Source: an uncultured delta proteobacterium
GTDB taxonomy: Bacteria; Myxococcota_A; Polyangia; Polyangiales; Houyiibacteriaceae
Direction of reading: 5' to 3'
NCBI GenBank assembly: GCA_963699755.1
Contig: CAVOVB010000010.1
Location: forward strand, 204,363 to 268,362
DNA length: 64,000 bases
Shown: piece by piece, positions 34,194 to 60,781 of the stretch
How positions within the stretch are numbered: position 1 is the first letter of the stretch
Layout of the letters: each line of letters begins with the position of its first letter
Program-made: the position numbers and the translations under genes
Notes under the pieces: generated by a model
Database searches by the model: none
What the model was told of the DNA's origin: nothing
Seen by the model: only the letters and a program-made list of their open reading frames with translations

Positions 34194-34293
34194 TGCAAGA
34201 AACAGGCCCCGCGAACCGGACGATTCTCCTCGTGTTTCCCTCTCCCGAAACGCATCCTGTGCGCTCCGCCGACCATGGACGCAGACATTTCGC
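34194..34293 (-). promoter_or_regulatory. Sigma54 promoter of coo operon with two upstream palindromic boxes
   Basis: GGGCCTG-TTTC-TTGCA (34209-34194); ACGCA-TCCTG-TGCGC 34250-34264; ACGCA-GACAT-TTCGC 34279-34293. Confidence 0.72.
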
Positions 34294-34368
34294 AAGACAG
34301 CCAGAAGGGCCTCATCTGGCCGACACCTCGGTGGATCGGCAACTCCAGCTAGGTGCTATGGTGCAACC

Positions 34369-35370
34369 ATGACGACGAGCACGCGCGCTGTAGCCGTTGC
34401 GCTATTCGTCGACTTCGTCATCGGAGCGGCCAAGCTGCTTGCCTTCCTGCTCACGGGCTCGACCGCGATCATGGCGGAGGTGCTCCATTCCGGCGCGGAC
34501 CTGACTAATCAGACGCTCTTGCTGGTTGGGATCGCTCGGTCGCGACGAGGCCCCGACAGGGACTACCCTTACGGCTTTGGCCGATCTCGCTACATCTGGG
34601 CGCTGCTGTCTGCCGCGGGCGTGCTGTTCGTCGGAAGCGGTGTGTCGGTCATACGCGGGGCGCAGCAAGTCTGGGCGCCGGCGCCGCTCGAGCACCTGGG
34701 CTGGGGCTTCGTCATCTTGTGGGTGTCACTCGCGGCGGAGAGCATTTCTCTCGCGGTTGGCTTCTCGGCCGTTCGGCGATCGGCCCGCGAAGCGGGCCAA
34801 TCCGTTCGGCAATATCTCCGAAGAGGCCCCGATCCGATGGGCGTTGCGGTTGTGATCGAGGACGGATCCGCCGTCGTCGGCGTACTGCTCGCCTTGACGG
34901 GGCTCGGCCTGGCCCAGCGCACTGGAAACCCTGCCTGGGACGGAGCGGCCTCCATCGCCATCGGGCTGCTGCTCGGCGCGTCTGCGGTCTTTCTCATCAA
35001 TCGGAATCGCCGCCATCTACTTGGGGCCGCGCCTCCTTCCGAATCGGTCGCACGGATGATGGCAGTCCTCGAAAAGAGCCCGTTGGTCGCGCAAATCCAA
35101 GACGTGAAAGTTTCGCAACTTGGCGCGGATGCAGTCCGCTTCAAAGCCGAAGTCACCTTCGATGGTCGGGAGCTCGCGCGGCGTCTATTGGGCGAAAGGG
35201 ATTTGGATGCGGCCTGGGCCACCCTGAGTGGGCCAAAGGCACTCGAGCGCCTTCTGGTCGAGTTTGGGGGCGAGGTCACTGATGCGATCGGCGATGAAAT
35301 CGACCGGCTCGAAGCTGAGCTGACCGAGGCTGCGCCGGAGGCCCGACATGTCGACATCGAGCCAGACTGA
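34369..35370 (+). CDS. Cation diffusion facilitator transporter
   Basis: TGSTAIMAEVLHSGADLTNQ, YPYGFGR.RY, EDGSA, WDGAASIAIG, VDIEPD. Confidence 0.92.
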   Translation: MTTSTRAVAVALFVDFVIGAAKLLAFLLTGSTAIMAEVLHSGADLTNQTLLLVGIARSRRGPDRDYPYGFGRSRYIWALLSAAGVLFVGSGVSVIRGAQQVWAPAPLEHLGWGFVILWVSLAAESISLAVGFSAVRRSAREAGQSVRQYLRRGPDPMGVAVVIEDGSAVVGVLLALTGLGLAQRTGNPAWDGAASIAIGLLLGASAVFLINRNRRHLLGAAPPSESVARMMAVLEKSPLVAQIQDVKVSQLGADAVRFKAEVTFDGRELARRLLGERDLDAAWATLSGPKALERLLVEFGGEVTDAIGDEIDRLEAELTEAAPEARHVDIEPD

Positions 35371-35465
35371 CACGAGAGCCAGGACCCAAGACCTCCTGTG
35401 AGGCGAGCCCATGAGCGAAGGAGCAGCAACGGGACGGGGAAACCCTCTCGAGGTGACAGCTGTCC

Positions 35466-35813
35466 TCATAGAGTTGGGTTGTGTCTCGGTCGATGCCCCT
35501 CCCGCTTGATCCGCTCGAGGCCATCGCCCCTCGTCGGGTCGATGGCCCGGATGAGCTTCGCCATGGCCGCAGCACGCGCCATGAAGCCCTTGGTCGCATA
35601 GAGGTCGACGGCGCGCTCGTAGGCCAGCACCGCATCGGCTTTGCGCCCCATCCGCTGTAAGAGATCACCTCTCCGATGGGGCCAACGCGGCTCATCTGGC
35701 CTCTGTTTTTCGATCAACTCGTAGAGATCGAGCGCCTCGGAGAGGCGGCTCGATTCGAGCGCCTGGGTTAGCTTTGCATGCAGATCCGTCGTCTTGCTCG
35801 CTCGTCCGAACAT
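35466..35813 (-). CDS. Small stand-alone TPR-like protein, paralog of N-terminus of 7749..9149
   Basis: [34 protein letters not shown] shared; GGGAGG RBS. Confidence 0.8.
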   Translation of the reverse strand: MFGRASKTTDLHAKLTQALESSRLSEALDLYELIEKQRPDEPRWPHRRGDLLQRMGRKADAVLAYERAVDLYATKGFMARAAAMAKLIRAIDPTRGDGLERIKREGHRPRHNPTL

Positions 35814-35858
35814 TTGCCTCCCCTTTTCACTCATGCGGCGCGAGTCAGCGTGTACCCA

Positions 35859-36087
35859 AGCAACTCCCGTGCCAGGGCGGTTCAAGCGCTTTGCTTGGTC
35901 TTTTCGGCGGCGATGTGCGCAAGCATTGCACTGGAGCAGAGACGACGCGCAGGACCTGCGATCGCCGCTGGTCCTGGGCAATCGCGCAGATTGTGCGCTC
36001 GCATAACCGGCGTGCGTTCGATCTAGAGCTCAGTCCCAGCATACGATGGCTTTCGAAGGTGCTCTGTGCTTTGGTCTGGGTGTTGCA
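35859..36087. promoter_or_regulatory. Divergent sigma54 promoters sharing three GCGCA-N5-TGCRN boxes
   Basis: TGGCACG-GGAG-TTGCT (minus, 35874-35859); TGGTCTG-GGTG-TTGCA (plus, 36072-36087); boxes at 35917-35931, 35947-35961, 35984-35998. Confidence 0.78.
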
Positions 36088-36120
36088 TGGAAGTCGGTGA
36101 TTCATCAGACCGACCGAGTG

Positions 36121-37836
36121 ATGTCTTCATACTTCAAAGCACTCGCCATCGATTTCGACGGGACCCTCACCGAAGCAGGCCCTCCGGGTGAACGCGTGCT
36201 CGCCTCCTTGCTCGAAGCCCGCGAAGCCGGGATGGCGCTCTTGTTGGTTACCGGCCGGGTCGTTTCGGACTTGCTACACGTTTTTCCCGATGCGGAGCAA
36301 TGGTTCGATGCGATCGTGGCAGAGAACGGCGCCGTGATTCGCCGCGATGGAGCATCTCATGCGCTGACCACGCCAGTCCCCCTGGAGCTCGATCTGCCGT
36401 TGGTGGAGGATGGCGTGTATTTTCAACGAGGCCAGGTGCTTCTCGGCTGCAACGCCGAAGATGAGATCCGCGTCCTTGGGCAGCTGCGGCGTCTCGAAGC
36501 GGACTGCCAGTTGATTCGGAACCGAGGGGCCCTAATGGTCTTGCCCGCGGGGGTTTCGAAAGCCTCGGGTCTTCTCAAAGCATTGGAAGGGCTTGGCATT
36601 TCATATCACAACACAATTGGAATCGGGGATGCAGAGAACGACCTGGCTCTGCTTCGCCAATGCGAGCTTGCCGTCGCGGTCGGCAATGCCGTCGATTCCT
36701 TGAAGCGAGCAGCCGACATCATTCTCCCAGCGGACGCTGGGGAAGCCGTTGCGGATTTCCTTCGGGATCGGGTCCTCACGGATGAGCCGTTGCCAGCGTC
36801 GTATCGCTGGCAGGTGACGCTCGGGCGGTCGGACGACGGCGGCACAGTCAGGATGCCGGCGTCCCGGGTCAACGTGTTGTTCGTAGGGGGCAGCGGTGTC
36901 GGGAAGTCCTATGCCGCAGGCCTTTTGGCGGAGCGCTTGTTAGAGCTCGACTACTCCGTGTGCATCCTCGACCCCGAAGGGGACCATGCGCCCCTTGCAC
37001 GCCTGCATCAGGTTTTCGCGCTCGGAAGCAGCGGACCGCTGCCGCCAGCCAAGAGCATTCCCGAATTGCTGAGGCAGCAGCCTGGAAGCCTGGTGGTCGA
37101 TCTCTCCTTGCTCGGCGAAGAGCGTCGAGCAGGGTATGCGGCCGAGTTGCTTCAGGCTCTCCACGAAGAGCGCGGCAGATCCGGTTTGCCCCATTGGATC
37201 GTCGTGGACGAAGCACAAGTTCCTTTCGGCGACCAGGGCGCCGCGTGTCAGATGTTTCACGATCAAAAGGGCCTCTGCCTGGTGACCTACGACCCTGCCC
37301 AACTCTGCCTATCGTCGCGATTGGACTTCGATTTCTTGATCGCTATTCCAGGGGAGAGCGGAATCCATCCGGCGGCCCTCGATGGCCTGCGCGCGCGATG
37401 GGACATCGACCTGCTCGATCGACTGCCAGCGCCAGAGGAGGGACAGGCCTTGCTCCTGCGACTGGGCGACTCCCCCCGAGTCGAGCAGTTCAGGCTGGGC
37501 CGGCGCTTCGTGCAGCACGTGCGCCACTGGCACAAGTATGCGGACGCGCACCTTCCGCCCAGCAGCATGTTCCAATTTCGCAACTACTTCGGGCTCACCG
37601 GCGCTCGGGCCGACAACCTCGCAACGTTTCGCCGTGAGCTGCTCCTCTGCGACTCTGCAGTGCTAGAGCATCATGCTGCCCACAATGATTTCTCCAATTG
37701 GCTGGATCACGCGATCCATGACGGGAAGCTGGCATCGACCGCACGCGAGCTCGAGGCATGGAGCCGCGAATACGGCACGTTTGAGGCCCTGCGCCACGCG
37801 CTGGTGGAAGCTATCGAGAATCGATACTTGGCCTAG
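36121..37836 (+). CDS. Cof-type HAD hydrolase fused to HerA/DUF87-like P-loop ATPase and C-terminal DUF5752-like domain
   Basis: DFDGTL, TGR, ENG, GDAENDL; GGSGVGKS, ILDPEGD, VVDEAQ; HNDFSNWL. Confidence 0.85.
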   Translation: MSSYFKALAIDFDGTLTEAGPPGERVLASLLEAREAGMALLLVTGRVVSDLLHVFPDAEQWFDAIVAENGAVIRRDGASHALTTPVPLELDLPLVEDGVYFQRGQVLLGCNAEDEIRVLGQLRRLEADCQLIRNRGALMVLPAGVSKASGLLKALEGLGISYHNTIGIGDAENDLALLRQCELAVAVGNAVDSLKRAADIILPADAGEAVADFLRDRVLTDEPLPASYRWQVTLGRSDDGGTVRMPASRVNVLFVGGSGVGKSYAAGLLAERLLELDYSVCILDPEGDHAPLARLHQVFALGSSGPLPPAKSIPELLRQQPGSLVVDLSLLGEERRAGYAAELLQALHEERGRSGLPHWIVVDEAQVPFGDQGAACQMFHDQKGLCLVTYDPAQLCLSSRLDFDFLIAIPGESGIHPAALDGLRARWDIDLLDRLPAPEEGQALLLRLGDSPRVEQFRLGRRFVQHVRHWHKYADAHLPPSSMFQFRNYFGLTGARADNLATFRRELLLCDSAVLEHHAAHNDFSNWLDHAIHDGKLASTARELEAWSREYGTFEALRHALVEAIENRYLA

Positions 37837-37878: not shown

Positions 37879-38322
37879 TTAGCCTTCGTTCCGAAGTGCC
37901 ATTCTACGCTCTTCGAGGAATGCAAAGAGTGCATCGCGTTGCTCTTTGTGCGCAGGCTCGTCCGCCCATCGATAGAGCGTGGCGTTCTCCCTGCTCGCGT
38001 GCGATCGCAGCTGTGCGACGAGGTCATCGATCCGCTCCTTGCGCAAGGTGTGGAGCTCCGTCTCGATGTTTAGCTCATCGAGCGCCCGACGAAAGCGTTC
38101 ATGGTCCTGCCTGAGCTCGCGGATTTCGCGGGGATGGTGCTCCTCGAAACGCTCGAAGAGATAACGCTCTTCGCCATCGATATGGGCTCTCAAGCCTCGA
38201 TCGACTTCACGGAAGACTTGCAGAATCGTCGGAAAGTCGGCCCCTTCAACCGCATTCATCAAATCTGAAAGACGATGATCGATCGCTTCATGATCGCTCC
38301 CCAAGGACTCCCGTACGTTCAT
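37879..38322 (-). CDS. Hemerythrin/HHE domain protein
   Basis: DHEAID, HIDGEERYLF, DHE, HASRENATLY; GAGGAG RBS. Confidence 0.85.
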   Translation of the reverse strand: MNVRESLGSDHEAIDHRLSDLMNAVEGADFPTILQVFREVDRGLRAHIDGEERYLFERFEEHHPREIRELRQDHERFRRALDELNIETELHTLRKERIDDLVAQLRSHASRENATLYRWADEPAHKEQRDALFAFLEERRMALRNEG

Positions 38323-38449
38323 CCGTCGCTCCTCGTCCCCCGGACCTATCATATGCGCGACAACCTGCAACGAGCTGGGCAAACGACGAATGGGGATCGC
38401 TGTGCTAGTCGGACGGCGCAATCTCTTGGGTCTCTCTGAGCTCTTTCTC

Positions 38450-38469
38450 GAGCTCGGTAACCCGAGCTT
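38450..38469 (-). terminator. Possible terminator hairpin downstream of PIMT fusion
   Basis: GAGCTCGG-TAAC-CCGAGCTT. Confidence 0.35.
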
Positions 38470-38574
38470 CAAGCACCTCGAGCCGCTTCTTCAGCGCCAC
38501 CACCTCGCTGTGCAGCGCTGGCCCTTCGTCTTGTTTCTGTTCTGACATGATGCCTCCCTCGTGAACCGAGCGCC

Positions 38575-40557
38575 TCAGCCGTAGACATGCGGAATTGCGG
38601 CGCGTGCCGCCTCTGGCTTGAGTGCGTCAACGGCCTGAGTCTCATCGAACCAAACATAGGCGTCGAACTGCCAGGACAGCGCGGCCTGGAAGTAGTGGCT
38701 TTGAAGCTCGGTCTCCGGTCGATAAATGACGCCGATGGCCCGCTCCAAGCGCGGTGAACCCAGCTCCTCGCGAACCGCGTCGCGCGTCGGATAGCGGAGC
38801 GAGAGCAAGAACGCGGGCACCTCGCTGTCATGGCAAAGGCGCTCGTAGCTACTGGGATGTGAGGGCCGGACCCTCTTGATTTCCATAGGGCCGTCCCAAT
38901 CCGTGGCGGCCGCGACCGTCCCCGTATGGGTTCCAAAGCCGATCGAGAATGCGGCGTCCCCAAATTTCTGGCGGCACAGCTGCCCGATGTTGTGCTCGCC
39001 GCGCGCGGCCCCCATCTCGGTCGCCCGGGCGTCGCCGACGTGTGAATTGTGGGCCCAAACCACCACTTTCGAATCCGGGCCTCGAAACTCCAAGAGGCGC
39101 TCCAAGGTGTCGAACATGTGCTGGTCGCGAAGGTTCCAGGATGCTGGCCCCCCGTAGTACATGACGCGGTAGTACTGTTCCGCGGCGGACACCAAGTGGG
39201 CGTTGGAGGTGGCATCGAAGAACCGATCGCCTCCGGCCTTGGCATAGTCCAGCCGCCGCTCCAAGAGGTCGCGAAGGACGGCAACGACGGGGCGCTCGCA
39301 TTCAGCGTATCCTCGACTGATCGCGGCGCGTCCGTACAAAGCCGGGTCGCGCTCCCAGGGAGAAAGGCAAGCATACCGCTCTCCTGCGATTTTCGCGGCC
39401 TTTGGATCGACGTCATTCAGGTAGTGAAGGACCGCATCGAGTGACTTGTACAAGCTGTAGAGATCGAGGCCACGAAACCCTACCCGTCGCTCGGGGTCGT
39501 CGATCAGCTCATTGTGCGACTTCAGCCAGGCAACCAGCTCGAGAACCTCTCGGTTGCGCCACATCCAAGTCGGGAAACGTGTGAATGGTGGATCTTCGCG
39601 AACGGGGAAGTCCAGCCCGCGAACATGGTGATCGATGCGGGCTGCGTCGGGCCAGTCCCCCTCGATGGCAACGATATTGAAGCCGCGCCGCATGACGAGC
39701 TCCGTCGTGAGGCGAGTCCTCATTCGATAGAATTCAGACGTACCGTGGCTGGCCTCGCCGAGCAGCACGACGCGCGCATCGCCGATCTGCTCGAGCAATG
39801 GACCGAGCTCGACTTCGCCGATGTCGGCGATCGGTTGGCAGGCTTCACGAATCAAATGCGCGACCGGCGTCTCGGGACGCGGTGCGCGCTTCTGGCTTGG
39901 GGCCTCGGCACCCTCCGCGAAGCCTCCGGCGCCGATGAGTGGCACGAACCGGACGCCTCCCAAATCTTCGATGTCCGTCTGCCCAATGCTGTCTTTGGTG
40001 ACGCGCAGCAGGCGTTGGTCTCGGAGATCGGGTCCGACTGGAATCACGATTCGGCCGCCGGGCGCGAGTTGCTCGAGGAGGAACCGCGGGACTTCAGGCC
40101 CCCCCGCGGAGACCAGGATGGCATCAAAGGGCCCATGTTCGGGCCATCCCAGCGTCCCGTCTCCGCATAGAACGTACACGTTGCGATAGTCGAGCTCTCG
40201 CAGCCGACGCTCCGCTTGGTCAGCCAGCAGCCGATGACGCTCGATCGTGTAGACCTCGTCGGCGATTTCCGCGAGGACCGCGGCCGCGTAGCCGGAACCG
40301 GTACCAATCTCCAAGACCCGATCACGGGGCCCGAGCTTCAGCGCCTCGACCATCGCCGCCACGATGAAAGGCTGCGATATCGTCTGCCCTTCTTCGATCG
40401 GCAGGGGAGTGTCATCGTAGGCAAACTCCGCTAGCCGTTCCGGAAGGAACGCCTCGCGCGGCACCGCCCGCATCGCGCCGAGCACCTTGGCGTCGTGAAC
40501 GCCCCGCGCCTCCACGTGACGCTCCACCATGCGACGACGCTGTTCGCTGGTATCCAT
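38575..40557 (-). CDS. pcm: Protein-L-isoaspartate O-methyltransferase fused to erythromycin-esterase domain
   Basis: VPREAF, QTISQP, VLEIGTGSGY, FVPLIG; LLGEASHGTSEFY, EGDWPD, WAHNSHVGDARAT, ERAIGVIY. Confidence 0.92.
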   Translation of the reverse strand: MDTSEQRRRMVERHVEARGVHDAKVLGAMRAVPREAFLPERLAEFAYDDTPLPIEEGQTISQPFIVAAMVEALKLGPRDRVLEIGTGSGYAAAVLAEIADEVYTIERHRLLADQAERRLRELDYRNVYVLCGDGTLGWPEHGPFDAILVSAGGPEVPRFLLEQLAPGGRIVIPVGPDLRDQRLLRVTKDSIGQTDIEDLGGVRFVPLIGAGGFAEGAEAPSQKRAPRPETPVAHLIREACQPIADIGEVELGPLLEQIGDARVVLLGEASHGTSEFYRMRTRLTTELVMRRGFNIVAIEGDWPDAARIDHHVRGLDFPVREDPPFTRFPTWMWRNREVLELVAWLKSHNELIDDPERRVGFRGLDLYSLYKSLDAVLHYLNDVDPKAAKIAGERYACLSPWERDPALYGRAAISRGYAECERPVVAVLRDLLERRLDYAKAGGDRFFDATSNAHLVSAAEQYYRVMYYGGPASWNLRDQHMFDTLERLLEFRGPDSKVVVWAHNSHVGDARATEMGAARGEHNIGQLCRQKFGDAAFSIGFGTHTGTVAAATDWDGPMEIKRVRPSHPSSYERLCHDSEVPAFLLSLRYPTRDAVREELGSPRLERAIGVIYRPETELQSHYFQAALSWQFDAYVWFDETQAVDALKPEAARAAIPHVYG

Positions 40558-40657
40558 GTCGATCAGCCGAGCTCCCGCACGCTGGCGCGAGCCAAAGGCT
40601 CGGTCTTGGCTTCACCGCGGATTCGAAGCTCTATCTGTGTCATCGGCTCCACCTGCC

Positions 40658-41152: not shown

Positions 41153-41291
41153 AGCAACAATCGGGCCACATGCCGGCCTGCGGGTTCACCAAGCTGCGTC
41201 ACTCGACAAACAGGCCTAAACTGCCGATCCTCGGGTCCCAGCGCACGAGCGACGCTCCCGGTGCTCGTGCGCTGTCGCGCATATTCTGCGT
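41153..41291 (-). promoter_or_regulatory. Sigma54 promoter of hsp20 with upstream boxes
   Basis: TGGCCCG-ATTG-TTGCT (41168-41153); GCGCA-TATTC-TGCGT 41277-41291; partial GCGCA-CGAGC-GACGC 41241-41255. Confidence 0.7.
41239..41274 (-). terminator. Hairpin downstream of polX
   Basis: CAGCGCACGAGC...GCTCGTGCGCTG 12-bp inverted repeat; no clear U-tract. Confidence 0.45.
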
Positions 41292-53918: not shown

Positions 53919-53985
53919 GCTCAGCAGCCTAGACGGTTCTCGTCGAATTCCCTATGCTTGATCGGCTGCGCGGAGAGGTTGACCG

Positions 53986-54438
53986 ATGTCGAACAAAGCT
54001 CCCGAAGACGAGCTGCGAAGGATCGCTGGCGAATACCGGCAGATTCAGGGTGAGCACGAGCGCGAAGGGGAGTCCGGGAGTTGGCGACGCCGGCAGAAGG
54101 CCCAGCTCTCCGACCTGGATGTGCGATTCGAGCACATCTTGGACCACTGGTTCCGGGATGAAACCACTCGAGCGCAGTGGCGCGAACACCTCTTCCGCGC
54201 CGCGGCGGAGCCGGCCCCAATTCACGATGTGCCGCGTTTGTATCGCGGGCGATCGGAAAGTGGCTCGGTCGTGGATGTCTTCGAGACGCAGAGCGGCGAA
54301 TGGGAATACATCGTCGACGGCGCGGTGGCGGAGCGCCGCAAGGCAGGGAAGTCGACTCTGCACGATTTGCGAAAGCTACGTCAAGAACGTACGGGCATCG
54401 GCCACCATCGTCAGATCGTTCGCGCCGTCGACCTGTGA
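53986..54438 (+). CDS. Hypothetical protein, probably 3'-truncated near 54357
   Basis: GGAGAGG RBS; host-like coding to ~54357, then tail overlaps an opposite-strand remnant. Confidence 0.55.
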   Translation: MSNKAPEDELRRIAGEYRQIQGEHEREGESGSWRRRQKAQLSDLDVRFEHILDHWFRDETTRAQWREHLFRAAAEPAPIHDVPRLYRGRSESGSVVDVFETQSGEWEYIVDGAVAERRKAGKSTLHDLRKLRQERTGIGHHRQIVRAVDL

Positions 54439-54495
54439 GATCAGCTTGCCGTTCAGGCCGGCCACGCTTCCGCCGACAGTGAGTTTGTTGTTTCG
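54376..54495 (-). pseudogene. Remnant of Ig-like 'TVGGTVSGL..LVLQNNG.D.LT' repeat protein
   Basis: Translation LTVGGSVAGLNGKLISQVDGANDLTMVAD then stop; no start or signal. Confidence 0.4.
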
Positions 54496-54542
54496 GCCGC
54501 ATCTCCATCGTGGCCGGATGCGCCATCTTTTCCTACCTTGGC

Positions 54543-55169
54543 TCAAGTGAAGTCGCACAGGTACACCAGATCGCCGGGATTCGAGGAGCCCTGGAGATCC
54601 AACCCATCTTCGCAATCGAAAGGCTCGAACTCATCGAACCCTTGTTCCAGGAAAATACATCCCCCACACGCGTAGTCGTTTGGTGGGAAAGCGAGATCCC
54701 AATCTATGAGCGACCCACTGGTCGGATAGATGATGGCATCGGTGACTCCAAGTCCAATCCAACTCTGGCTCAAGGGGTCCAAGCCTTGCTCGAGCGGGCC
54801 ATCGGGCAGATCGCCTACCTGCGGGGGGACGACCAGAACGACCCCAATACCGAGAATCCCGTTGGACAAAGCCTCCGCGGGCGGAGCGGACTCGAACTCA
54901 ACGATGTATTGCTCGCCCGATGTCGTCCCCTCACCAAACTTGTATCCCGAGGGCTCAACGCTCCAAACGACGAGCACGCGTGAACCATCCGGCGGAGCCT
55001 CGCGTTTGATGGATCCACACACCGCGAAAGCAGCGGAGGGCGAACCGCAGGTCTGCGCCGAACCGCCAGTACCGCCCGTGCCCCCGCTCCCTCCCGGCTC
55101 TTCGCTACAATGAGCGAGCGACAAAATCAGCATCAAAGCGAAGCCGGCGCTCAGTGTCCAGAGCTTCAT
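54543..55169 (-). CDS. Hypothetical lipoprotein
   Basis: LAHC lipobox, GGSGGTGGTGG linker, Cys pairs. Confidence 0.75.
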   Translation of the reverse strand: MKLWTLSAGFALMLILSLAHCSEEPGGSGGTGGTGGSAQTCGSPSAAFAVCGSIKREAPPDGSRVLVVWSVEPSGYKFGEGTTSGEQYIVEFESAPPAEALSNGILGIGVVLVVPPQVGDLPDGPLEQGLDPLSQSWIGLGVTDAIIYPTSGSLIDWDLAFPPNDYACGGCIFLEQGFDEFEPFDCEDGLDLQGSSNPGDLVYLCDFT

Positions 55170-55252
55170 GATGTTTCCCTTCGCGGTTTCATGACGAGCA
55201 CATCAACTCAAGGAAGAGCCCAGAAATCAAGCACGCTCCATGTGCTCGGACC

Positions 55253-56377
55253 CTAGGGAGTGGCGCGGATGATCATCGCCGTGGTCGGGTCCGAAACCCA
55301 TTGTTTGACGAGAACATAGAGGTCCTCTTCAACCGCTGCAATTCCCAAGTAGTCGTGAAAGTAAGGATCGACACCCGGAATCTCATACGTGGCGACGGAC
55401 TGAAACGTCGTAGGATCGATTTTCACGATCGGGGATGCACTTTGAGCGACGACGGCCCAAAGGTATTCGCCATCCCAAGTCAGCCCATTCAGCTCGATGT
55501 CGAATCTATTGGCGCTGAGAAGAACCTTGGCGCTGGTATCCACCTTGAGGAGATCATGCCTTCTACTGGAGTCGCTCAGACCCGCAATCCACAAGTACTC
55601 ACCATCCCAGGCCATCGCATCTATGAATAGCTTGTGCGACAGATCGACGTCGGTATCAATCGTATAATCTTCGACGTCGTTGGTGTCGCGGCGCGAGGCA
55701 ATGGTGCTGGTCGTCGTCGCGGGAAACCAGAAATGGGAGTTCTCGTAGGCATGGACCTCGGCATAGCCGCTCTGTCGTGTAGGGAATGGCGAAACGAGAG
55801 CACCTGTCGAGGGGTCGAATGAGCGAAACAACTCGGTGAAGAAGCCGGCCCCACCGAACCACAACAACGCGCCGTCGTATGCAAGTCCAGTGCCGAACAG
55901 TGGGTTCGCGTCGAGGCCTGAGTACACGGTGACCTCGCTGAAGCTGCCACATCGCGATGTTTCTGGCACGGATTCAACTTTCAAAAAATCTTGGGATCGT
56001 CCAGCGGCGTCGTCCAACGACAACGATGCGTCATCGACTGCATACCGGAAGTTCTGGGGCAAAAGTCCAGAAACCGTAGCGAACGCTTCCAGGTCAATGG
56101 AAAGCGTCTCGTCGCTGAGGCGTGCGCAAATCAGATCCAGGCAAAAAAGACTCTTGGTTTTTGAATGCTCGAGAAACGCCGTCCCCGTGCTGTCCTCGTT
56201 GAGCTCCAAGTACCGAAAATCGAAACCGGAGGCAAACGCGAAGAGATCACCGTCGGTCGGCTCCCAAACGCCGGAAAGTGGAGGACCATCATCTGTCTGA
56301 GCAGGCCCACTATCGGCCCCGCAGCCAAAGTCAACGAACGTCGCAGCAAGTGCGATGATCAGTGTCAGGTTCTTCAT
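55253..56377 (-). CDS. Lipoprotein with beta-propeller (GLAYDG/AMAWDG/GLTWDG..LW repeats)
   Basis: DFGC lipobox; repeated blades. Confidence 0.75.
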   Translation of the reverse strand: MKNLTLIIALAATFVDFGCGADSGPAQTDDGPPLSGVWEPTDGDLFAFASGFDFRYLELNEDSTGTAFLEHSKTKSLFCLDLICARLSDETLSIDLEAFATVSGLLPQNFRYAVDDASLSLDDAAGRSQDFLKVESVPETSRCGSFSEVTVYSGLDANPLFGTGLAYDGALLWFGGAGFFTELFRSFDPSTGALVSPFPTRQSGYAEVHAYENSHFWFPATTTSTIASRRDTNDVEDYTIDTDVDLSHKLFIDAMAWDGEYLWIAGLSDSSRRHDLLKVDTSAKVLLSANRFDIELNGLTWDGEYLWAVVAQSASPIVKIDPTTFQSVATYEIPGVDPYFHDYLGIAAVEEDLYVLVKQWVSDPTTAMIIRATP

Positions 56378-56395
56378 AACCGTCTCCCCACTTCG

Positions 56396-58717
56396 TTAGA
56401 GCCCAGCGGCGGACTCGAAGGCGTCTAGCTTCTGAGCGATGTCTTCAGGCGTCGAAGCGTTCGCTACGTCGTGTAGGAACTCGAACAGATCGGCCTGGGA
56501 CATCGTATCCACGGCCGCCTCGAACAGCGCATGGGTCTCGGGCGATTCGGCGCGGGCACGAATCACGCCTGCGGACTCGAGGTCGCGGATGGCGGCCTGC
56601 TGTGCGGCCGTCGCGTCGGGATTGAACCTCGCTTCGGCTTCAGCGTATTGTGCCACGAGATCCGGGCCGAACACGGCGTCCTTGTCCTTCGTCCCGAAGA
56701 TCGCGAAGTACGTGTCTCGACCAAGCAGCTCCGCCAGCGCGATCTGGGCCTCCGGGCTGCGCACCAGGTGCGCCAACGCTCGGTCCCCCTCAGCTCGCGG
56801 AGTGCTGTCGCTAGCGATCACGCGCGCCAACTCTTGGAGGCCACGATGGAATTTCGGAAGACGTCCTTCGATGAGTGGTGGCCGCGGTGCGTTGAACATC
56901 TCCTCGATCGGCGGGGGCACATACCCCTCGGTCAGTAACTTGCCAGCGATCAGCAGCGACACTCGCTCGTTCATGCGACACATCGTCAAGTGCATTTCGC
57001 AGTCAGCGAGGGTCGCGTCGGTGTACTCGCTCTGCCACTGCTCGAAGCCCATCTCTCCGATCGCTCCCACGGCCTCCCAGTGATGCTGGCCGGTCGTGAT
57101 TGGGATCCCGTTGTTCACCAAACTGCACTCCCCACGACCCTTTGCGGCCAGCCACTCTTCGTAGAGCACGTCGTTGACACACCTGTCGTAGTTATAAGCG
57201 CAGTTCCCTTGGTTCTCGGGCGGCAGGTAGGCCGCTGGATCGGCGAAGCTCTCGACGAACTCGCGGTTGCACTGGACGACATCGAAGTACTTCCTGCTCG
57301 AGGTTCCTCCATGGGTAGCCCAGTAGTCCAAACGACCGCACAGTTCATCGAGGCAGCCGGCCGGATCGCTCCACTCGTAGCAGGCCAACCGGGCGTCGTT
57401 CAGCCAGGCCTCCTCGATGACCTCCGCACAGAACTCCTGGCCGCACTCCAGGAACGCGGCGTAGGAGTCGAAGGCTCCCGGCTGCGTCGCAAGGTCCCAG
57501 CTCTCCTTCAGCGCCGGCAGCGTCTGGGCCGCGGCCTTGGCATCCGCGCAGTAGCTCTCGAGGTAGGTATCGTCGACGCCCGGGACGCAGGCCTCCAGGG
57601 ACCGGTCGAACTCCTCCGCCATCTGTCCGTATGAGGCTTGCGGTAGCGGTACCCCGGCATCGAGATCCGCGATGGCATCGAGACAACTTTGACGATTTCG
57701 CGCGTTGACGCCAGCATTTGCGGCACGGATCTCCTCATCACACGCTTTCAAGCCAGGAGGCGCCACGAAGTCGTCTGGATTGCACACTTCCTCACACAGC
57801 CATCGCGCGCCGGCGAAGAAATCTACCGCGAAAAACACGCCGTCGTAGTTCCAAAACGAGTTCGGTGGCCAGATGTAACTCTCCACGGGGTGGTAGATCG
57901 TCGGGGTCGGGACGATGAAGTTCGAGCTGAGCTTCCGCTGCATCGATTCAGCAGCGCGCAGACGCTCAAACTTGGAGAGGTACGGGATGTAGCCGCAGGT
58001 GCCAGACGGGAACCTCCGAACCAGGAGCTCGTTGGTGTCTGGATCCTTGCGATAGGTCCCTACGGCGTTCGCGAGGTAGCCGATCTGCCAGGTCTGCGCG
58101 TTGTCATCGCCATAGGCCGTGTCACACGACATGTTGGCGGGACACAACCAATCCCACACATGCCCCTGCCACTCGTGCACCGTTTCGTGCACCAGTGTGC
58201 TCGACCGCTCGACCACGCCGAGCCAGCCGAAGAACTTGTAGTGGAGTTGAGTCGGAGCCTTGTAGCGGTTGGTGGCGTTGGCGCCGAACTCACACGTGGC
58301 GACGTAGCCCTCCTCGTGTTTGGGATAGACAAAGTCACCCAACCACCAGTGGATGAAGTTGGGTCGCGTGGTGTTCGCGGCGTGATACGAGATCTGGTCC
58401 ATCAGAAACGCGGCGTTCATCAGCCGAATCACATAGCTATTTGGACTGCACTGGAGCGCGCCATCGTGGAGCGCGAGGTTGTCCCAATAGGCGCCGTTGA
58501 CCCCCAAGTGCAGTGAGTTCCAGAAGTGCGTGTAGTTCGCGGCGACGTTGGGGTCGCCGGCGCACCACAGCTGCGCCATGTCGTTGTCCATGCTGACGGC
58601 GGCGTCCAACCATGTCCAGCCGGCGTAATCGGGGACGCACTGGTCGGCCTCGGCTGTCTGCGCGACGAACATCACCACCGCGACGCCAGCAAGTATGAGC
58701 TTCATTTTGGTGAACAT
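56396..58717 (-). CDS. Secreted Cys-rich putative zincin metalloprotease
   Basis: Signal peptide (AEA|D), RSSTLVHETVHE (HExxH), many Cys; GGGAGG RBS. Confidence 0.7.
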   Translation of the reverse strand: MFTKMKLILAGVAVVMFVAQTAEADQCVPDYAGWTWLDAAVSMDNDMAQLWCAGDPNVAANYTHFWNSLHLGVNGAYWDNLALHDGALQCSPNSYVIRLMNAAFLMDQISYHAANTTRPNFIHWWLGDFVYPKHEEGYVATCEFGANATNRYKAPTQLHYKFFGWLGVVERSSTLVHETVHEWQGHVWDWLCPANMSCDTAYGDDNAQTWQIGYLANAVGTYRKDPDTNELLVRRFPSGTCGYIPYLSKFERLRAAESMQRKLSSNFIVPTPTIYHPVESYIWPPNSFWNYDGVFFAVDFFAGARWLCEEVCNPDDFVAPPGLKACDEEIRAANAGVNARNRQSCLDAIADLDAGVPLPQASYGQMAEEFDRSLEACVPGVDDTYLESYCADAKAAAQTLPALKESWDLATQPGAFDSYAAFLECGQEFCAEVIEEAWLNDARLACYEWSDPAGCLDELCGRLDYWATHGGTSSRKYFDVVQCNREFVESFADPAAYLPPENQGNCAYNYDRCVNDVLYEEWLAAKGRGECSLVNNGIPITTGQHHWEAVGAIGEMGFEQWQSEYTDATLADCEMHLTMCRMNERVSLLIAGKLLTEGYVPPPIEEMFNAPRPPLIEGRLPKFHRGLQELARVIASDSTPRAEGDRALAHLVRSPEAQIALAELLGRDTYFAIFGTKDKDAVFGPDLVAQYAEAEARFNPDATAAQQAAIRDLESAGVIRARAESPETHALFEAAVDTMSQADLFEFLHDVANASTPEDIAQKLDAFESAAGL

Positions 58718-58736
58718 GACCAGGCCCTCCCTGCGC

Positions 58737-59450
58737 TCAGTCGACCCGATTGAGCAAGTAGTGCGCCGATGGCGGTAGTCGCGTTTTCATCACGCGCTTC
58801 GCGCGCCAGCGTTCTAGGCTGGCCGCGTAGTACGCAGCGATCGCCGGCGGGCGAATCAGGCGATCACCGGTCTCCACGATCGTCAGCAAGCGGTCTTTTG
58901 CGAGCGCTTCGCCGCTCATCGCCATCCGCGCCAGCTCCGAGACGGCATGGTGCCGAACCATCAGGAGGAAGTCCCGGTCGCGCGATGGCTCGTGGCTTTC
59001 CTCCAGTGCCGTCGCCTCCGGCAACGTCATCGTCGCGACACCGGTCAGGTAGTCGAAACCACGTTCGGTCGACGCCTCGGCGAGCAGGTGGAAAAGGATC
59101 CGCCGCGCCCGCTCGTTCGTGGCCGCCACCGCATCGAGCTCAAGGAGAAGCCGGTCGGTGACCTCGGCGCCGTCAGCGCGGATGGCCTGACGCGCCGCCG
59201 CCGCACGATCATCGAGCGCTGCCCATTGCTCCGCGCTCGTCGGACGGGCCATGAAGGTCTGATAAAGCTCATCGATCGCCTCGTCCGTGGCGTCGGCGCG
59301 CCCCTGGAACGAGAACGTAGATCCTGCCCCTTCGGGCACCGGGAGCACCGGAGACTCTGCGGCAGGCGAATCCTTGCATCCAAGCGCCGGGAGCAGCGAA
59401 GACCAAATCGCTCCGACCGCCAACGCTACCCGTGAAAGGGAACACTGCAT
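58737..59450 (-). CDS. Helical (HEAT-like) lipoprotein
   Basis: ALGC lipobox; GGAGGG RBS; 19 bp upstream of 773-aa gene. Confidence 0.7.
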   Translation of the reverse strand: MQCSLSRVALAVGAIWSSLLPALGCKDSPAAESPVLPVPEGAGSTFSFQGRADATDEAIDELYQTFMARPTSAEQWAALDDRAAAARQAIRADGAEVTDRLLLELDAVAATNERARRILFHLLAEASTERGFDYLTGVATMTLPEATALEESHEPSRDRDFLLMVRHHAVSELARMAMSGEALAKDRLLTIVETGDRLIRPPAIAAYYAASLERWRAKRVMKTRLPPSAHYLLNRVD

Positions 59451-59485
59451 GAAACCCTCCTACCAAGATCAGTGCCATCCAAGGC

Positions 59486-59586
59486 TGCAAGCATTGTACC
59501 AACTCCCTGGTCGCGGTTCTGCTAGCTTCTGGGCCGCGCCCGGCGCACCATCTGCAGATTCGCGACCTTCGACGCAGGATTTGCGG
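59486..59586 (-). promoter_or_regulatory. Sigma54 promoter with two upstream boxes
   Basis: TGGTACA-ATGC-TTGCA (59501-59486); GCGCA-CCATC-TGCAG 59543-59557; ACGCA-GGATT-TGCGG 59572-59586. Confidence 0.72.
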
Positions 59587-59645
59587 TTCGGCGAGGGGAC
59601 GTCCAACGACCCGTCGATCGATCCTCCATGCTCGTCGCCGCTGCG

Positions 59646-60548
59646 CTAGGGTGAACGCTGCCAGACTCCATTGAAAATCAGACGTGTCGGAAACGCCAAG
59701 CAATCGGGCCAGGGTTCGCAGTCGATGGGAGTTGTCGACAGCTCGTCGCCGGCGATTGAGAACCTCAGCTCTTCATACCTTTCACGCAGAACCCTAATCG
59801 CGGTTGAAGTCTCCCACCAGCTACGGAGCTTCCCGTCGTCCTCCTCGAGCAGCCCGAATTGCGTCACGGTGTTCGGCGCGACCAGGTCCGAGCAATCCGA
59901 ATTCTGGTGAAAAGCGAAGCTGAGGTTGGCTTCCGCGACGTGACGAGGGGAAATTGAAAGCCGAACTTCGTAGTGGATCGTCACGAAGACTGGGGGATCG
60001 CCCGGTATGACCATAGAGTCGCAGTCCCGCGACCGCTCCCAGTTTCCGACGGTCGTCACCGGCCATGCGGGTGCTCGCATCGCCAAGATCTCCTCAGGCG
60101 GCGGTGCCGTTCTCATGTTGCGCGAATCGGAAGGGTTCCATGTCAGAGAGAGGTTGTCACCATCGAGGTCCGCCGTGTACACACTGACATCGCCGGCTTC
60201 TTCGGTCAGCACCCATTGTTGGCCGTCGAGCGCAACCTCGTCTTCTCGAGAGATCAGTGCGCCTTGCGGCACTTCGTTTTCTAGCAGCACCTGGCGGATC
60301 GACACCACGCCGCTGCTCTCCGTAGTGGGCGTGAAGAGCACGTCACCCCGCACGGCGAGAGGCGACCCGTCACGCTGAACCGTTTGTGTCGTCATACCTA
60401 CCTGCGCCGTCACCGATGTGATCAGCCAAAGCCCCTCGAACTCGGAAGCGATGGGAGGGTGCGCGTCGGAGCCGCAGCCGGAGACCAGAAATCCGCAGAG
60501 GAAAGCGAGTGGCCAAATCGCAATGCATCGAAGAATAGAGCTATTCAT
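59646..60548 (-). CDS. Hypothetical lipoprotein (two lipocalin-like beta domains)
   Basis: VSGC lipobox, FEGLW and VGNW motifs; GGAGGG RBS. Confidence 0.7.
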   Translation of the reverse strand: MNSSILRCIAIWPLAFLCGFLVSGCGSDAHPPIASEFEGLWLITSVTAQVGMTTQTVQRDGSPLAVRGDVLFTPTTESSGVVSIRQVLLENEVPQGALISREDEVALDGQQWVLTEEAGDVSVYTADLDGDNLSLTWNPSDSRNMRTAPPPEEILAMRAPAWPVTTVGNWERSRDCDSMVIPGDPPVFVTIHYEVRLSISPRHVAEANLSFAFHQNSDCSDLVAPNTVTQFGLLEEDDGKLRSWWETSTAIRVLRERYEELRFSIAGDELSTTPIDCEPWPDCLAFPTRLIFNGVWQRSP

Positions 60549-60609
60549 GCACCCTCCATCTCACGTCGCCGTTTCTTTCGCTTCGCAGGGCGCCATCAGG
60601 ATCCAGCCA

Positions 60610-60781
60610 AGCATCTCCTGTGCCAACGCCGATCCGAACCAACTTCCCAACCTTTGCCACGATGTTGAACGCACCGGCTGCGTCTCGGCAGCAGAATTCG
60701 AAAATCTTGCGCCACGAAACTGTCGTGCCTGCCGCGATCTTGCCCCCTTTCGACACTCGTCCCAGTGGTCCGGATCTTGCT
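60610..60781. promoter_or_regulatory. Divergent sigma54 promoters sharing two boxes
   Basis: TGGCACA-GGAG-ATGCT (minus, 60625-60610); TGGTCCG-GATC-TTGCT (plus, 60766-60781); ACGCA-CCGGC-TGCGT 60669-60683; TCGAA-AATCT-TGCGC 60698-60712. Confidence 0.75.

Follow-up and report, generated by a model that had tools for sequence, protein, structure and literature searches.

A predicted sigma-54 regulon with tandem NmpR-type boxes that probably ties CO dehydrogenase, stress and secreted lipoprotein genes to a globin-coupled kinase in an uncultured myxobacterium

At the glnAp2 promoter of enteric bacteria, NtrC dimers bound to tandem dyad sites at about -108 and -140 assemble an AAA+ ring and activate the sigma-54 holoenzyme. 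DosR/DevR of Mycobacterium tuberculosis is a NarL/LuxR-type regulator of sigma-70-type promoters, while CooA and RcoM bind CO and activate sigma-70 promoters adjoining the coo operon. The NmpRSTU system of Myxococcus xanthus was reportedly the subject of an earlier study by Bretl et al. in 2018 (PMC6211767). Using EMSA and reporters, McAllister et al. (2025; PMC11841059) show that NmpR binds GCGCA-N5-TGCGC boxes of sigma-54 promoters and prefers a gap of 14-15 nt between boxes, which equals 29-30 bp centre to centre; the same paper describes NmpR as induced by hypoxia and as activating the nmpU operon besides its own, a USP, a P-type ATPase together with cbb3, and hemN-hemerythrin, and reports AfGcHK and NmpU to be active with O2 bound. 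The NmpR motif named in a preliminary description of the present DNA is correct according to this work.

Here we analyse a 64-kb stretch of DNA (the window) from the 5.35 Mb genome of an uncultured myxobacterium. We put at about 80% the probability that its seven sigma-54 promoters fall within a regulon of ~43 promoters, whose boxes are likely sites of an NmpR-type activator encoded beside a globin kinase. The preliminary description had claimed -24/-12 promoters at cooF, TPR, HAD, hsp20, 59486, 60610 and 60766, and all seven elements were located in the window sequence exactly where it had put them (Table 1). The bare TGGC-N7-TTGC pattern is not significantly enriched in the window (4 versus 2.59 expected; 22 of 100 shuffles reach 4); RCGCA-N5-TGCGY palindromes are (5 versus 0.86 expected; a count of 5 is reached in 0 of 100 shuffles). 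Of these five palindromes, four lie in the intergenic regions claimed to carry boxes, and the remaining one (56759) is within coding DNA.

Table 1. Promoters, boxes, genes and accessory features of the window. Box distances run from the box centre to the T of TGG; mismatches are counted against RCGCA-N5-TGCGY. Gene calls here and throughout are from our own crude caller.
Feature	Position	Strand	Details
cooF-cooS-cooC-FAD/NAD(P) oxidoreductase operon (Ni-CODH)	29510..34165	-	Pfam
Sigma-54 -24/-12 element, cooF operon	34194..34209	-	GGGCCTGTTTCTTGCA; score 17 of 20
cooF proximal box	34250..34264	.	perfect; centre 48 bp from TGG
cooF distal box	34279..34293	.	1 mismatch; centre 77 bp from TGG
115-aa TPR protein gene	35466..35813	-	belongs to multi-copy family
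Sigma-54 promoter, small TPR gene	35859..35874	-	TGGCACGGGAGTTGCT; full consensus
TPR box	35917..35931	.	1 mismatch; centre 50 bp from TPR promoter
TPR box	35947..35961	.	1 mismatch; centre 80 bp from TPR promoter
Box common to divergent promoters	35984..35998	.	perfect; 117 bp from TPR, 81 bp from HAD
Probable weak sigma-54 promoter, HAD-ATPase gene	36072..36087	+	TGGTCTGGGTGTTGCA; score 16.5 of 20
HAD-IIB phosphatase-ATPase fusion	36121..37836	+	true start ATG 36121, not 36046
hsp20, then PCMT/erythromycin-esterase-like fusion, then hemerythrin	37879..41107	-	Pfam
Sigma-54 promoter, hsp20	41153..41168	-	TGGCCCGATTGTTGCT; conserved in 4 congeners
hsp20 partial box, doubtful	41241..41255	.	2 mismatches; 80 bp from hsp20 promoter
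hsp20 box	41277..41291	.	perfect; centre 116 bp from hsp20 promoter
Segment without strong nucleotide match	52300..63300	.	30 congeners compared
Four-gene operon, secreted proteins and lipoproteins	54543..59450	-	237, 773, 374, 208 aa
Sigma-54 promoter, four-gene lipoprotein operon	59486..59501	-	TGGTACAATGCTTGCA
Two boxes, 59501 promoter	59543..59586	.	59543-59557 (2 mismatches, 49 bp), 59572-59586 (1 mismatch, 78 bp)
300-aa lipoprotein gene	59646..60548	-	lipobox-like LVSGC
Sigma-54 promoter, 300-aa lipoprotein gene	60610..60625	-	TGGCACAGGAGATGCT
Two boxes common to divergent promoters	60669..60712	.	60669-60683 perfect, 60698-60712 2 mismatches
Sigma-54 promoter, lipoprotein and M43-like zincin unit	60766..60781	+	TGGTCCGGATCTTGCT
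250-aa lipoprotein and 512-aa lipoprotein	60835..63152	+	512-aa: weak Peptidase_M43/metzincin match
tRNA-Lys and tRNA-Glu	63824-64000	.	border of 52300..63300 segment, with contig end

The box centres measured at the cooF, TPR, 59501 and 60625 promoters place the proximal box edges 41-44 bp from the promoter with a second box 29-30 bp further, which is the geometry proposed for these four. A HAD box at the second position and two hsp20 boxes, partial and full, had also been proposed, and are found at 81 bp and at 80 bp (2 mismatches) and 116 bp (0 mismatches), respectively. Being palindromic, a single pair of boxes can act on two promoters that diverge from it (TPR/HAD; 60625/60766); those at 60669 and 60698 lie 51 and 80 bp from the minus-strand promoter (60625) and 90 and 61 bp from the plus-strand promoter (60766). 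The perfect hsp20 box has a counterpart at 104-117 bp in the congeners G071, G072, G039 and G064, and no match is listed at the position equivalent to the partial box in these four. The HAD promoter, examined in three congeners, is kept and nearer consensus in G072 and has lost its GG in G071 and G064. The weak boxes of the window are those at 59543, 60698 and 41241, each with 2 mismatches.

Among the genes downstream of these promoters, CooS scores 720.9 bits on TIGR01702 (cut-off 478). The hemerythrin gene (37879-38322) is separated by a 253-bp gap from the preceding genes of the hsp20 operon, with which it may be co-transcribed, and this segment is missing from the corresponding site in G071. 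No Pfam family was found for the 237-, 773-, 374- and 208-aa products of the four-gene operon; a paralogue with 42% identity to the 374-aa protein comes first behind another promoter of the regulon (C1:440311). The orthologous cooF promoter in G062 reads AGGCCCGGTTCTTGCA, and both of its boxes, at 50 and 79 bp, are perfect. The rtcA region of the 52300..63300 segment has a 68% match in two of 30 congeners, the segment shows no GC deviation, and no integrase family was detected among four of its ORFs scanned. From such comparisons, the Ni-CODH operon, the TPR gene and the tRNA-flanking lipoprotein segment are assigned to accessory DNA bearing the promoter design of the regulon; this is consistent with the proposal that the CODH was recruited and the lipoprotein genes island-borne.

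Genome-wide scans revealed 138 perfect RCGCA-N5-TGCGY sites, compared with 42-62 for other spacers between N0 and N12. Sixty-five of the 138 are intergenic, though by our crude gene calls only 8.2% of the genome is, and 32 of these 65 lie at most 300 bp upstream of a sigma-54 site scoring at least 18; of 59 strong intergenic sigma-54 promoters, 27 are preceded within 250 bp by a box with no more than 1 mismatch. Box pairs with at most 1 mismatch in total are spaced 28-30 bp in 26 of 29 cases, a sigma-54 site follows 25-130 bp downstream of 44 of 68 double sites, and in 27 of those 44 the centre of the proximal box is 47-51 bp upstream of the T of TGGCAC. Compared with shuffled DNA, boxes are very strongly enriched at these positions: they occur at 47-51 bp in 14 of 93 promoters (shuffle mean 0.165), at 76-80 bp in 13 (shuffle mean 0.125) and at both in 10 (0 of 200 shuffles). 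With the T of TGGCAC set by convention at -26, the usual box positions are about -75 and -104 from the predicted transcription start. Contig C7, which redundantly copies part of C1, is left out of the final counts. Across the genome, which carries one rpoN, ~43 predicted promoters combine a sigma-54 element with boxes, and their logo has G at position 7, a position unused in scoring, in 35 of 43. The architecture had been called fixed, which holds for the majority class, but in a minority of promoters the box offset is shifted in steps of ~10-11 bp. The regulon proposed for the window would embrace all seven promoters there, but it is a genome-wide set and not a local one.

As the preliminary description had stated, no EBP gene was found inside the window; the only PF00158 match on the contig (C10:52690-53181) is about 150 kb away. 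Domain searches did identify a candidate NmpR/NtrC-family orthologue elsewhere in the genome, a REC-AAA+-HTH activator convergent with the operon that encodes a globin-coupled histidine kinase, and both the activator operon (WS/DGAT-EBP) and the USP-globin-kinase operon carry the sigma-54/box promoter design. The globin domain of the kinase has AfGcHK (5ohe) as its best PDB match (E 1.8e-27) and conserves the residues that align with its His99 and Tyr45, and the kinase core looks nearer the NmpS type than the NmpU type. In 80 related Myxococcota loci of the orthologous activator (1.22 Mb), N5 palindromes number 140, versus 7-24 with spacers of 2-9, and 45 of the 80 also contain the globin kinase. 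In one related locus, L093, an nmpU-nmpT-nmpS-like operon adjoins the activator, which has 67% identity to the activator of this genome, versus 55% for the next paralogue in the genome, which supports orthology of the candidate with NmpR. On this sequence evidence the boxes of the window are likely binding sites of the NmpR-type activator beside the globin kinase.

The predicted targets include cbb3 oxidase, hemerythrins, USPs, CBS proteins, hsp20 and a ribosome hibernation factor, together with the O2-sensitive Ni-CODH and with genes for glycogen and for wax esters/TAG; some half of the promoters precede genes for secreted proteins or lipoproteins of unknown function. In the proposed mechanism, the haem-globin kinase would adjust phosphorylation of the activator to O2, phosphorylated activator dimers would occupy both boxes and assemble an AAA+ ring on one helix face, and the ring would remodel the sigma-54 holoenzyme at the adjoining promoter. 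No orthologue of NmpS (a REC-HisKA-CA inverter) or NmpT was found in this genome, so we infer the sign of the oxygen response. The earlier proposal of a low-oxygen regulon is favoured by target content in common with M. xanthus (cbb3 oxidase, hemerythrin, USP and CBS proteins), from which the regulon is argued to be ON at low O2, and weakened in that the NmpS/NmpT relay was not found. At low oxygen, such a regulon would turn on genes for CO dehydrogenase, stress, storage and secreted lipoproteins.

The same regulon and activator could instead answer another signal, if the globin kinase phosphorylated the activator on binding a gas ligand (O2, or CO/NO) and the regulon were ON with ligand, which we regard as unlikely. 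The target set does contain a CO-oxidising enzyme, and AfGcHK is reportedly active with CO bound as well. With no NmpS/NmpT inverter found in this genome, direct wiring from kinase to activator could give an O2-ON regulon, since O2-bound NmpU and AfGcHK are the active forms according to PMC11841059. Yet the targets (cbb3 high-affinity oxidase, hemerythrins, USPs, hibernation factor, Ni-CODH) match the hypoxia-induced M. xanthus regulon as given there (PMC11841059), and the kinase core resembles the NmpS type, hypoxia-active in M. xanthus, more than the NmpU type; both points favour the low-oxygen reading.

That a different sigma-54 activator, or several paralogues, binds the boxes appears distinctly improbable. 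The genome encodes ~24 PF00158 activators, so a paralogue could share the box motif, and the gene of the 55% identical one (C1:648354-649748) carries a perfect box immediately upstream; however, the sites around that gene look like GTGCAG-N3-CTGCAC types, and the globin-kinase-linked activator is the only one with box-bearing sigma-54 promoters on both flanking operons, kept at the same places in related loci. The published NmpR motif is identical to the boxes (PMC11841059). We give very little credence to the architecture being the footprint of duplicated promoter cassettes moved with paralogous genes, under no common regulator. Promoter sub-families with linker, leader and even signal-peptide sequence in common do exist, one being TGGCACGCCTGATGCA with the CCCCACGCCCCAA linker, and the leaders of AGGAAC promoters are up to 92.5% identical. 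Against this, the 40-nt linker averages only 31% identity over 24 promoters of the 48-51 class, in which the boxes are kept; boxes are also conserved in orthologous promoters of other species, and the spacer-5 and 28-30 bp constraints hold genome-wide.

The regulon with an NmpR-type activator and globin kinase resembles NtrC at glnAp2 in its tandem dyads and, by prediction, in their occupation by ring-forming activator dimers and in face-of-helix dependence, while its motif differs, its sites are nearer the promoter (about -75 and -104) and their positions are far more uniform across the regulon. DosR/DevR is a functional analogue, in which, under hypoxia, a haem-sensor kinase likewise governs alpha-crystallin/hsp20 together with numerous USPs and a triacylglycerol synthase of the WS/DGAT type, though regulator and motif are without homology. 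As in CooA- or RcoM-controlled coo operons, a haem-based gas sensor is predicted to stand over cooF-cooS type Ni-CODH genes; no CooA or RcoM gene was found adjoining the coo operon, and, unlike in those systems, its promoter is a sigma-54 promoter with NmpR-type boxes. With M. xanthus NmpRSTU the system shares an NtrC-like REC-AAA+-HTH activator, a GCGCA-N5-TGCGC motif that is identical in the two, the placing of these boxes in tandem, 14-15 nt apart, upstream of sigma-54 promoters, and, by prediction, a protoglobin histidine kinase as sensor and autoregulated activator and kinase operons. It differs in that the NmpS hybrid kinase and NmpT double receiver were not found in this genome and the kinase core joined to the globin domain is NmpS-like. 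Whereas the M. xanthus NmpR regulon comprises 7 promoters and 23 genes, ~43 promoters are predicted here, with added arms for Ni-CODH, hsp20, glycogen and WS/DGAT genes, HPF-archease-RtcB and many secreted lipoproteins.

All seven −24/−12 elements that the preliminary description had placed in the window are present, and the boxes that it had assigned to the cooF, TPR, 59501 and 60625 promoters, palindromes of the form RCGCA-N5-TGCGY, agree in position with the distances measured here from box centre to the T of TGG(CAC). It had also claimed a box at the second position for the HAD promoter, and a partial box with a full one beyond it for hsp20; both arrangements were recovered (see table). 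The HAD promoter lies upstream of its gene and not within it, because the true start of the gene is a downstream ATG (MSSYFKALAIDFDGT) that is kept in three congener genomes, with the DNA 5' of it diverging. In two divergent pairs, TPR/HAD and 60625/60766, the palindromic boxes are common to both partners. The sigma-54 promoters carry GG and GC doublets 10 nt apart in TGGCAC-N5-TTGCW and are oriented upstream of genes, and rpoN is present in the genome in one copy.

Gene content between 29.5 and 63.2 kb of the window was checked with Pfam and NCBIfam. Beyond ~53.4 kb the genes have few or no family matches and their products open with signal peptides, a lipobox-like ...GC motif being found in six of them. 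When seven proteins of this segment were scanned against both databases, six had no family and the remaining one, of 512 aa, gave weak metalloprotease matches only. For the 115-aa TPR protein, paralogues 58-72% identical lie on contig C3, and the multi-copy family of which it is a member gives many 70-80% DNA matches in congeners. Upstream of the USP/P-type ATPase operon neither a sigma-54 site nor a box was found. Beside the PolX/P-type ATPase region of two congeners (locus L139 from G071 and locus L146 from G064) CGGCACGGACTTTGCG forms a sigma-54-like element accompanied by a perfect box; its counterpart is absent from the list of window candidates, so that regulon membership differs among species. 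A further sigma-54-like element in the window (AGGCACTTCGAGTGCT, score 18) lies 19 bp ahead of a called gene start; no NmpR-type box accompanies it, and some other activator presumably acts there. Two boxes 30 bp apart, one with two mismatches and the other with one, span the junction between genes 1 and 2 of the lipoprotein operon; no sigma-54 element lies nearby, and the pair was treated as a chance occurrence.

Positions of the promoters, genes and segments discussed, with box distances from box centre to the T of TGG(CAC); coordinates are those of the window unless a contig (C) or comparison locus (L) is named
Feature	Position	Boxes (bp)	Annotation
cooF promoter		proximal 48, distal 77	
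TPR promoter		proximal 50, distal 80	
HAD promoter	36072-36087	single, 81	
hsp20 promoter		weak 80, perfect 116	
59501 promoter	59486-59501	proximal 49, distal 78	
60625 promoter	60610-60625	proximal 51, distal 80	
60766 promoter	60766-60781		
cooF-cooS-cooC-flavoprotein operon	CooS 31628-33520		window, Pfam/NCBIfam
Cation-efflux gene and 115-aa TPR gene	TPR protein 35466-35813		window, Pfam/NCBIfam
HAD-IIB phosphatase-ATPase fusion	start ATG 36121		window, Pfam/NCBIfam
hsp20, then PCMT/erythromycin-esterase-like fusion and hemerythrin			window, Pfam/NCBIfam
PolX; P-type ATPase with USP; sugar-metabolism genes; rtcA	rtcA 52270-53310		window, Pfam/NCBIfam
Sigma-54-like element	27007-27022 (-)		
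Region upstream of USP/P-type ATPase operon	46758-47068		
Box pair at lipoprotein operon	58722-58766 (58729/58759)		
Multi-copy 130-bp stretch	63316-63450		
tRNA-Lys(ttt) and tRNA-Glu(ttc)	~63824-64000		
Copy of last 430 bp of window	C8:209934-210363		
TPR paralogues	C3:93350, C3:187567, C3:471496		
Elements beside PolX/P-type ATPase region of congeners	L139 6310 (+), L146 1465 (-)	perfect, 58	
Activator, C7 copy	C7:269904-271331 (= L033:5904-7331)		
Activator, C1 copy	C1:1731534-1732961		
WS/DGAT-activator operon	promoter C7:268431	60 and 90	regulon, Pfam
Globin kinase	L033:7328-8509		
USP-kinase operon	promoters C7:273077 and C1:1729786	perfect, 79 in each	regulon, Pfam
REC-first hybrid kinases	C5:132598, C3:759462		
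ccoS-ccoNO-ccoQ-ccoP-ccoG (cbb3 oxidase)	double box within 3' end of CcoI-type ATPase gene	perfect double box, 60 and 90	regulon, Pfam
Hemerythrin-USP-...-acetyl-CoA hydrolase/transferase operon			regulon, Pfam
Glycogen set: debranching enzyme, GT4, GH57, glycogen synthase/phosphorylase fusion			regulon, Pfam
DUF5335-baeRF-CBS operon; CBS-USP operon			regulon, Pfam
Ribosome hibernation factor-archease-RtcB operon	C4:37190-39688	perfect, 59	regulon, Pfam
CoA-binding protein; hsp20; CODH operon			regulon, Pfam
Promoter of paralogue of 374-aa window protein	C1:440311		
Promoter cassette family	C2:844.7-847.4 kb, C2:367.6-368.1 kb, C10:18195, C1:1926336, C3:3213, C4:35850		
Promoters with AGGAAC/GGGAAC at -24	C1:129270, C10:17055, C2:858317		

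The strict core TGGC-N7-TTGC occurs four times in the window against 2.59 expected, which is not significant, and a weighted sigma-54 score was therefore used in its place. The palindrome occurs five times against 0.86 expected, a count of at least five being reached in none of 100 shuffles. Across the genome (5.35 Mb, 11 contigs, the window being C10:204363-268362), RCGCA-Nk-TGCGY is found 138 times at k = 5 compared with 42-62 times at each other k in 0-12, and 65 of the 138 N5 palindromes are intergenic in a genome whose intergenic share, by crude gene calls, is 8.2%. A weighted score of at least 19 is reached at 139 sites, of which 59 are intergenic and aimed at a gene start 5-250 bp off. 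Nearly half of the intergenic perfect boxes (32 of 65) have a site scoring at least 18 within 300 bp downstream, and a box carrying no more than one mismatch is located upstream of 27 of the 59 strong promoters.

The geometry is similarly constrained. When boxes are paired within 12-70 bp, with at most one mismatch in total, the spacing is 28-30 bp in 26 of 29 pairs; two-mismatch pairs number 17 at 29-30 bp compared with 0-4 at most other spacings and 8 at 13 bp. A sigma-54 site scoring at least 17 is located 25-130 bp past the proximal box in 44 of 68 double sites, at a distance of 47-51 bp in 27 of the 44; the remainder fall at 31-41, 59-64, 68-76 and 82-84 bp, plus one at 105 bp, which suggests that the minority distances step by roughly 10-11 bp. 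The preliminary description had proposed comparison with shuffled DNA, and the positional enrichment that it anticipated is present genome-wide: among 93 intergenic promoters scoring at least 18 (contig C7 excluded), set against 200 dinucleotide shuffles, a box lies at 47-51 bp in 14 (shuffle mean 0.165), at 76-80 bp in 13 (shuffle mean 0.125) and at both positions in 10, a combination seen in 0 of 200 shuffles.

We assigned a promoter to the regulon if it had a double site and a sigma-54 score of at least 17, or a perfect single box and a score of at least 18. The predicted regulon comprises 49 promoters, or 43 without C7; in the logo of these 43, a G follows TGGCAC in 35, at a position that the score does not use. 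Contig C7 (435,813 bp) corresponds to C1 at ~1.58-1.93 Mb: 236 of its 412 called proteins have a C1 counterpart of at least 70% identity (median 88%), gene order is conserved over the ~34 kb compared gene by gene, and the end of C7 is 100% identical to C1. C7 appears to be redundant with part of C1, from which it has diverged; a close relative binned together with this genome, or a large duplication, would account for it, and the redundancy fits the 9% contamination figure.

The preliminary description had found no enhancer-binding protein in the window, and none of the ~24 strong PF00158 activators of the genome lies inside it. The search for an NtrC-family protein that it recommended led to a candidate activator elsewhere in the genome, beside a globin-coupled kinase. 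Box-bearing promoters flank this one activator, which is present in two copies, on C7 and C1, that are 93% identical, and which has the Pfam architecture REC-AAA+-HTH_8 (PF00072, PF00158, PF25601, PF02954); no NCBIfam equivalog was found for it, the top model being AtoC at 527 bits against a cut-off of 714. The activator is the second gene of its operon, which has a sigma-54 promoter and is convergent with the USP-kinase operon; both operons are predicted in silico to be autoregulated. The kinase is a Protoglobin-HisKA-HATPase protein (PF11563, PF00512, PF02518) whose globin domain finds its best PDB match in AfGcHK (5ohe, E 1.8e-27), and the residues aligned to His99 and Tyr45 of AfGcHK are conserved. 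The haem-ligand histidine of this type of globin kinase is named in the account of the Myxococcus xanthus system, which also gives AfGcHK as the homologue of M. xanthus NmpU (PMC11841059).

The nearest homologues of the activator, 80-93% identical, belong to Polyangiales and other Myxococcota MAGs. In a set of 80 loci around such homologues (1.22 Mb, all from MAGs, with no named Myxococcus isolate), the N5 palindrome occurs 140 times compared with 7-24 times for spacers of 2-9, boxes recur at the same places ahead of the activator and kinase operons, and 45 loci have a globin kinase inside the fetched flanks. Locus L093, more distant, shows the full M. xanthus-type arrangement: the operon adjoining the activator encodes a globin kinase together with a two-receiver protein and a REC-PAS-HisKA-HATPase hybrid, and a box pair 29 bp apart lies upstream; the best match of the L093 activator in the genome under study is the candidate activator (67%), the next paralogue reaching 55%. 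In the fetched flanks of two Myxococcaceae MAG loci (L117 and L126; activator identity 60-63%), neither a globin gene nor a perfect box is present. For the NmpS-like and NmpT-like proteins of L093 the genome under study has no orthologue; their best match there is the core of the globin kinase, and neither of the two REC-first hybrid kinases of this genome is among the matches to them. In all four loci with both kinase types, this kinase core matches the NmpS-type core at 39-45% and the globin-attached core at 29-35%. From pairwise similarity, and not from a tree, we infer that the globin sensor in this lineage may sit directly on an NmpR-specific kinase core. Judged from sequence, the probability that the genome holds an NmpR-type regulon is about 80%.

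By Pfam annotation, one arm of the predicted regulon is cytoplasmic and respiratory. The second arm is secreted: 18 of 40 first-gene products are signal-peptide-like in a crude hydrophobicity test, 9 of the 18 with a lipobox-like motif. Most of this arm is without a Pfam family and the rest comprises PKD, LamG, RCC1, GDSL-lipase, lipase-like, beta-lactamase, GH88 and beta-helix proteins. The lipoprotein units of the window are members of it, and a paralogue of a 374-aa window protein heads another regulon promoter. Some promoters form a cassette family with a common -24/-12 sequence, TGGCACGCCTGATGCA, a common linker between the boxes, CCCCACGCCCCAA, and a common leader, ...CCGCACTTAGGG; a lipoprotein signal peptide (MRYLxGF...GC) is conserved at the start of many of the products, whose mature parts are unrelated. 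Three further regulon promoters have AGGAAC or GGGAAC at -24 in place of TGGCAC; their leaders are at most 92.5% identical over 40 nt and hold GTTCC, complementary to the promoter GGAAC, and two of the three genes encode paralogous ~600-aa proteins without a Pfam family. RtcB and archease are encoded in an operon with a ribosome hibernation factor-cold-shock domain fusion behind a sigma-54-like element with an NmpR-type box; the window rtcA has no such promoter.

The window CooS is an anaerobic Ni-CODH (TIGR01702, 720.9 bits against a cut-off of 478) with cooF and cooC as neighbours. CooF was found in none of 60 sampled family genomes at E 1e-20. A DNA search of another sample, of 30 congeners, recovered the cluster in one, G062, in a different neighbourhood and behind a sigma-54 promoter whose two boxes, at 50 and 79 bp, are perfect; this copy rules out that the cluster is unique to the genome under study, and its distribution is instead patchy. 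At the syntenic site in four congeners (G071, G072, G040 and G047) the flanking genes abut and the cluster is absent. CooS shares 91-97% identity with metagenome proteins and with two proteins from Myxococcales MAGs, and among the next matches, at 83-88%, the named ones are all from Gammaproteobacteria (Lentisalinibacter, Chromatiales and Lysobacterales MAGs). Because such identity is high between two phyla, lateral transfer of CooS, in either direction, is suggested. The neighbouring genes and promoters vary in conservation: the TPR and hemerythrin genes are absent at this site in G071, the hsp20 promoter with a single perfect box (104-117 bp) is kept in G071, G072, G039 and G064, and the HAD promoter of G072 is nearer consensus and accompanied by a box, whereas in G071 and G064 its GG is lost and the box is absent. 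The segment at ~52.3-63.3 kb has a strong nucleotide match in none of the 30 congeners, its rtcA part matching at 68% in two. It ends at two tRNA genes and the end of contig C10; the last 430 bp of the window are 100% identical to a stretch of C8, and a 130-bp stretch near the boundary is multi-copy in all congeners. No integrase family was found in four ORFs scanned near the ends, and GC content does not deviate from the rest of the window (0.59-0.63). The segment is probably, though not certainly, a genomic island.

With the T of TGGCAC taken as -26, the boxes lie at about -75 and -104 and would each be occupied by an activator dimer; the AAA+ ring would form on one helical face and then open the sigma-54 complex, and a single box pair could serve two divergent promoters. 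The globin kinase would set phosphorylation of the activator according to O2, and the regulon would be on at low O2, as its target content suggests. Of these steps the dependence on low O2 is the least secure, since the inverter NmpS is missing from this genome; hypoxia is nonetheless rather probably the ON condition. Tentatively, and as a possibility short of probable, these elements may be joined as follows: in this Polyangiales lineage the four-protein NmpRSTU relay would have collapsed into a two-protein switch, a haem-globin sensor fused onto an NmpS-type kinase core, which governs nearly half of the strong sigma-54 promoters by means of enhancers rigidly placed at -75/-104. Its output would be a dormancy programme resembling that of DosR (hsp20, USPs, hibernation factor, glycogen and TAG storage, cbb3 oxidase), together with a Ni-CODH gained by horizontal transfer and with modular lipoproteins encoded on cassettes in which promoter, leader and signal peptide move as one.

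For an uncultured sediment or soil myxobacterium, the regulon map outlines a possible entry into low oxygen by way of high-affinity respiration, CO oxidation, storage polymers and ribosome hibernation, and it gives dozens of family-less secreted lipoproteins their first regulatory context. The geometry rule (boxes 28-30 bp apart, the proximal one 47-51 bp from TGGCAC, with rarer offsets of ~10-11 bp) could be used for NmpR regulon prediction in other Myxococcota, and rigid box geometry suits studies of sigma-54 activation at short range. With the same promoter design, the accessory CODH cluster and the tRNA-adjacent segment illustrate how acquired DNA may join an existing sigma-54 regulon.

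In full-text literature searches NmpR appeared in M. xanthus papers only, and for Myxococcota they yielded neither a sigma-54 regulon under a globin kinase nor a link to CODH. According to the M. xanthus study (McAllister et al. 2025, PMC11841059), NmpR (MXAN_4240) binds GCGCA-N5-TGCGC, as shown by EMSA; 5 of 7 NmpR-bound promoters have an inter-site gap of 14-15 nt, equivalent to 29-30 bp centre to centre; a sigma-54 site is required for activation by NmpR; and hypoxia induction of mxan_4236 is NmpR-dependent. The motif quoted in the preliminary description is identical to the published one, with which the spacing found here also agrees, and in silico the predicted double sites have the same tandem GCGCA-N5-TGCGC form and 14-15 nt gap. 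The two regulons are alike in motif, spacing, sensor type, autoregulation and core targets, the common target classes being cbb3 oxidase with a P-type ATPase, hemerythrin, USP and CBS proteins. The genome under study differs in being without the relay of NmpS, a hybrid kinase with an N-terminal receiver ahead of HisKA-CA, and NmpT, a protein of two receivers; this relay is a defining feature of NmpRSTU. NmpR has so far been known from one species and seven promoters, and the same motif and sensor type are associated here with a predicted regulon approximately six times larger, with added arms of Ni-CODH, hsp20, storage polymers, a hibernation factor and many lipoproteins.
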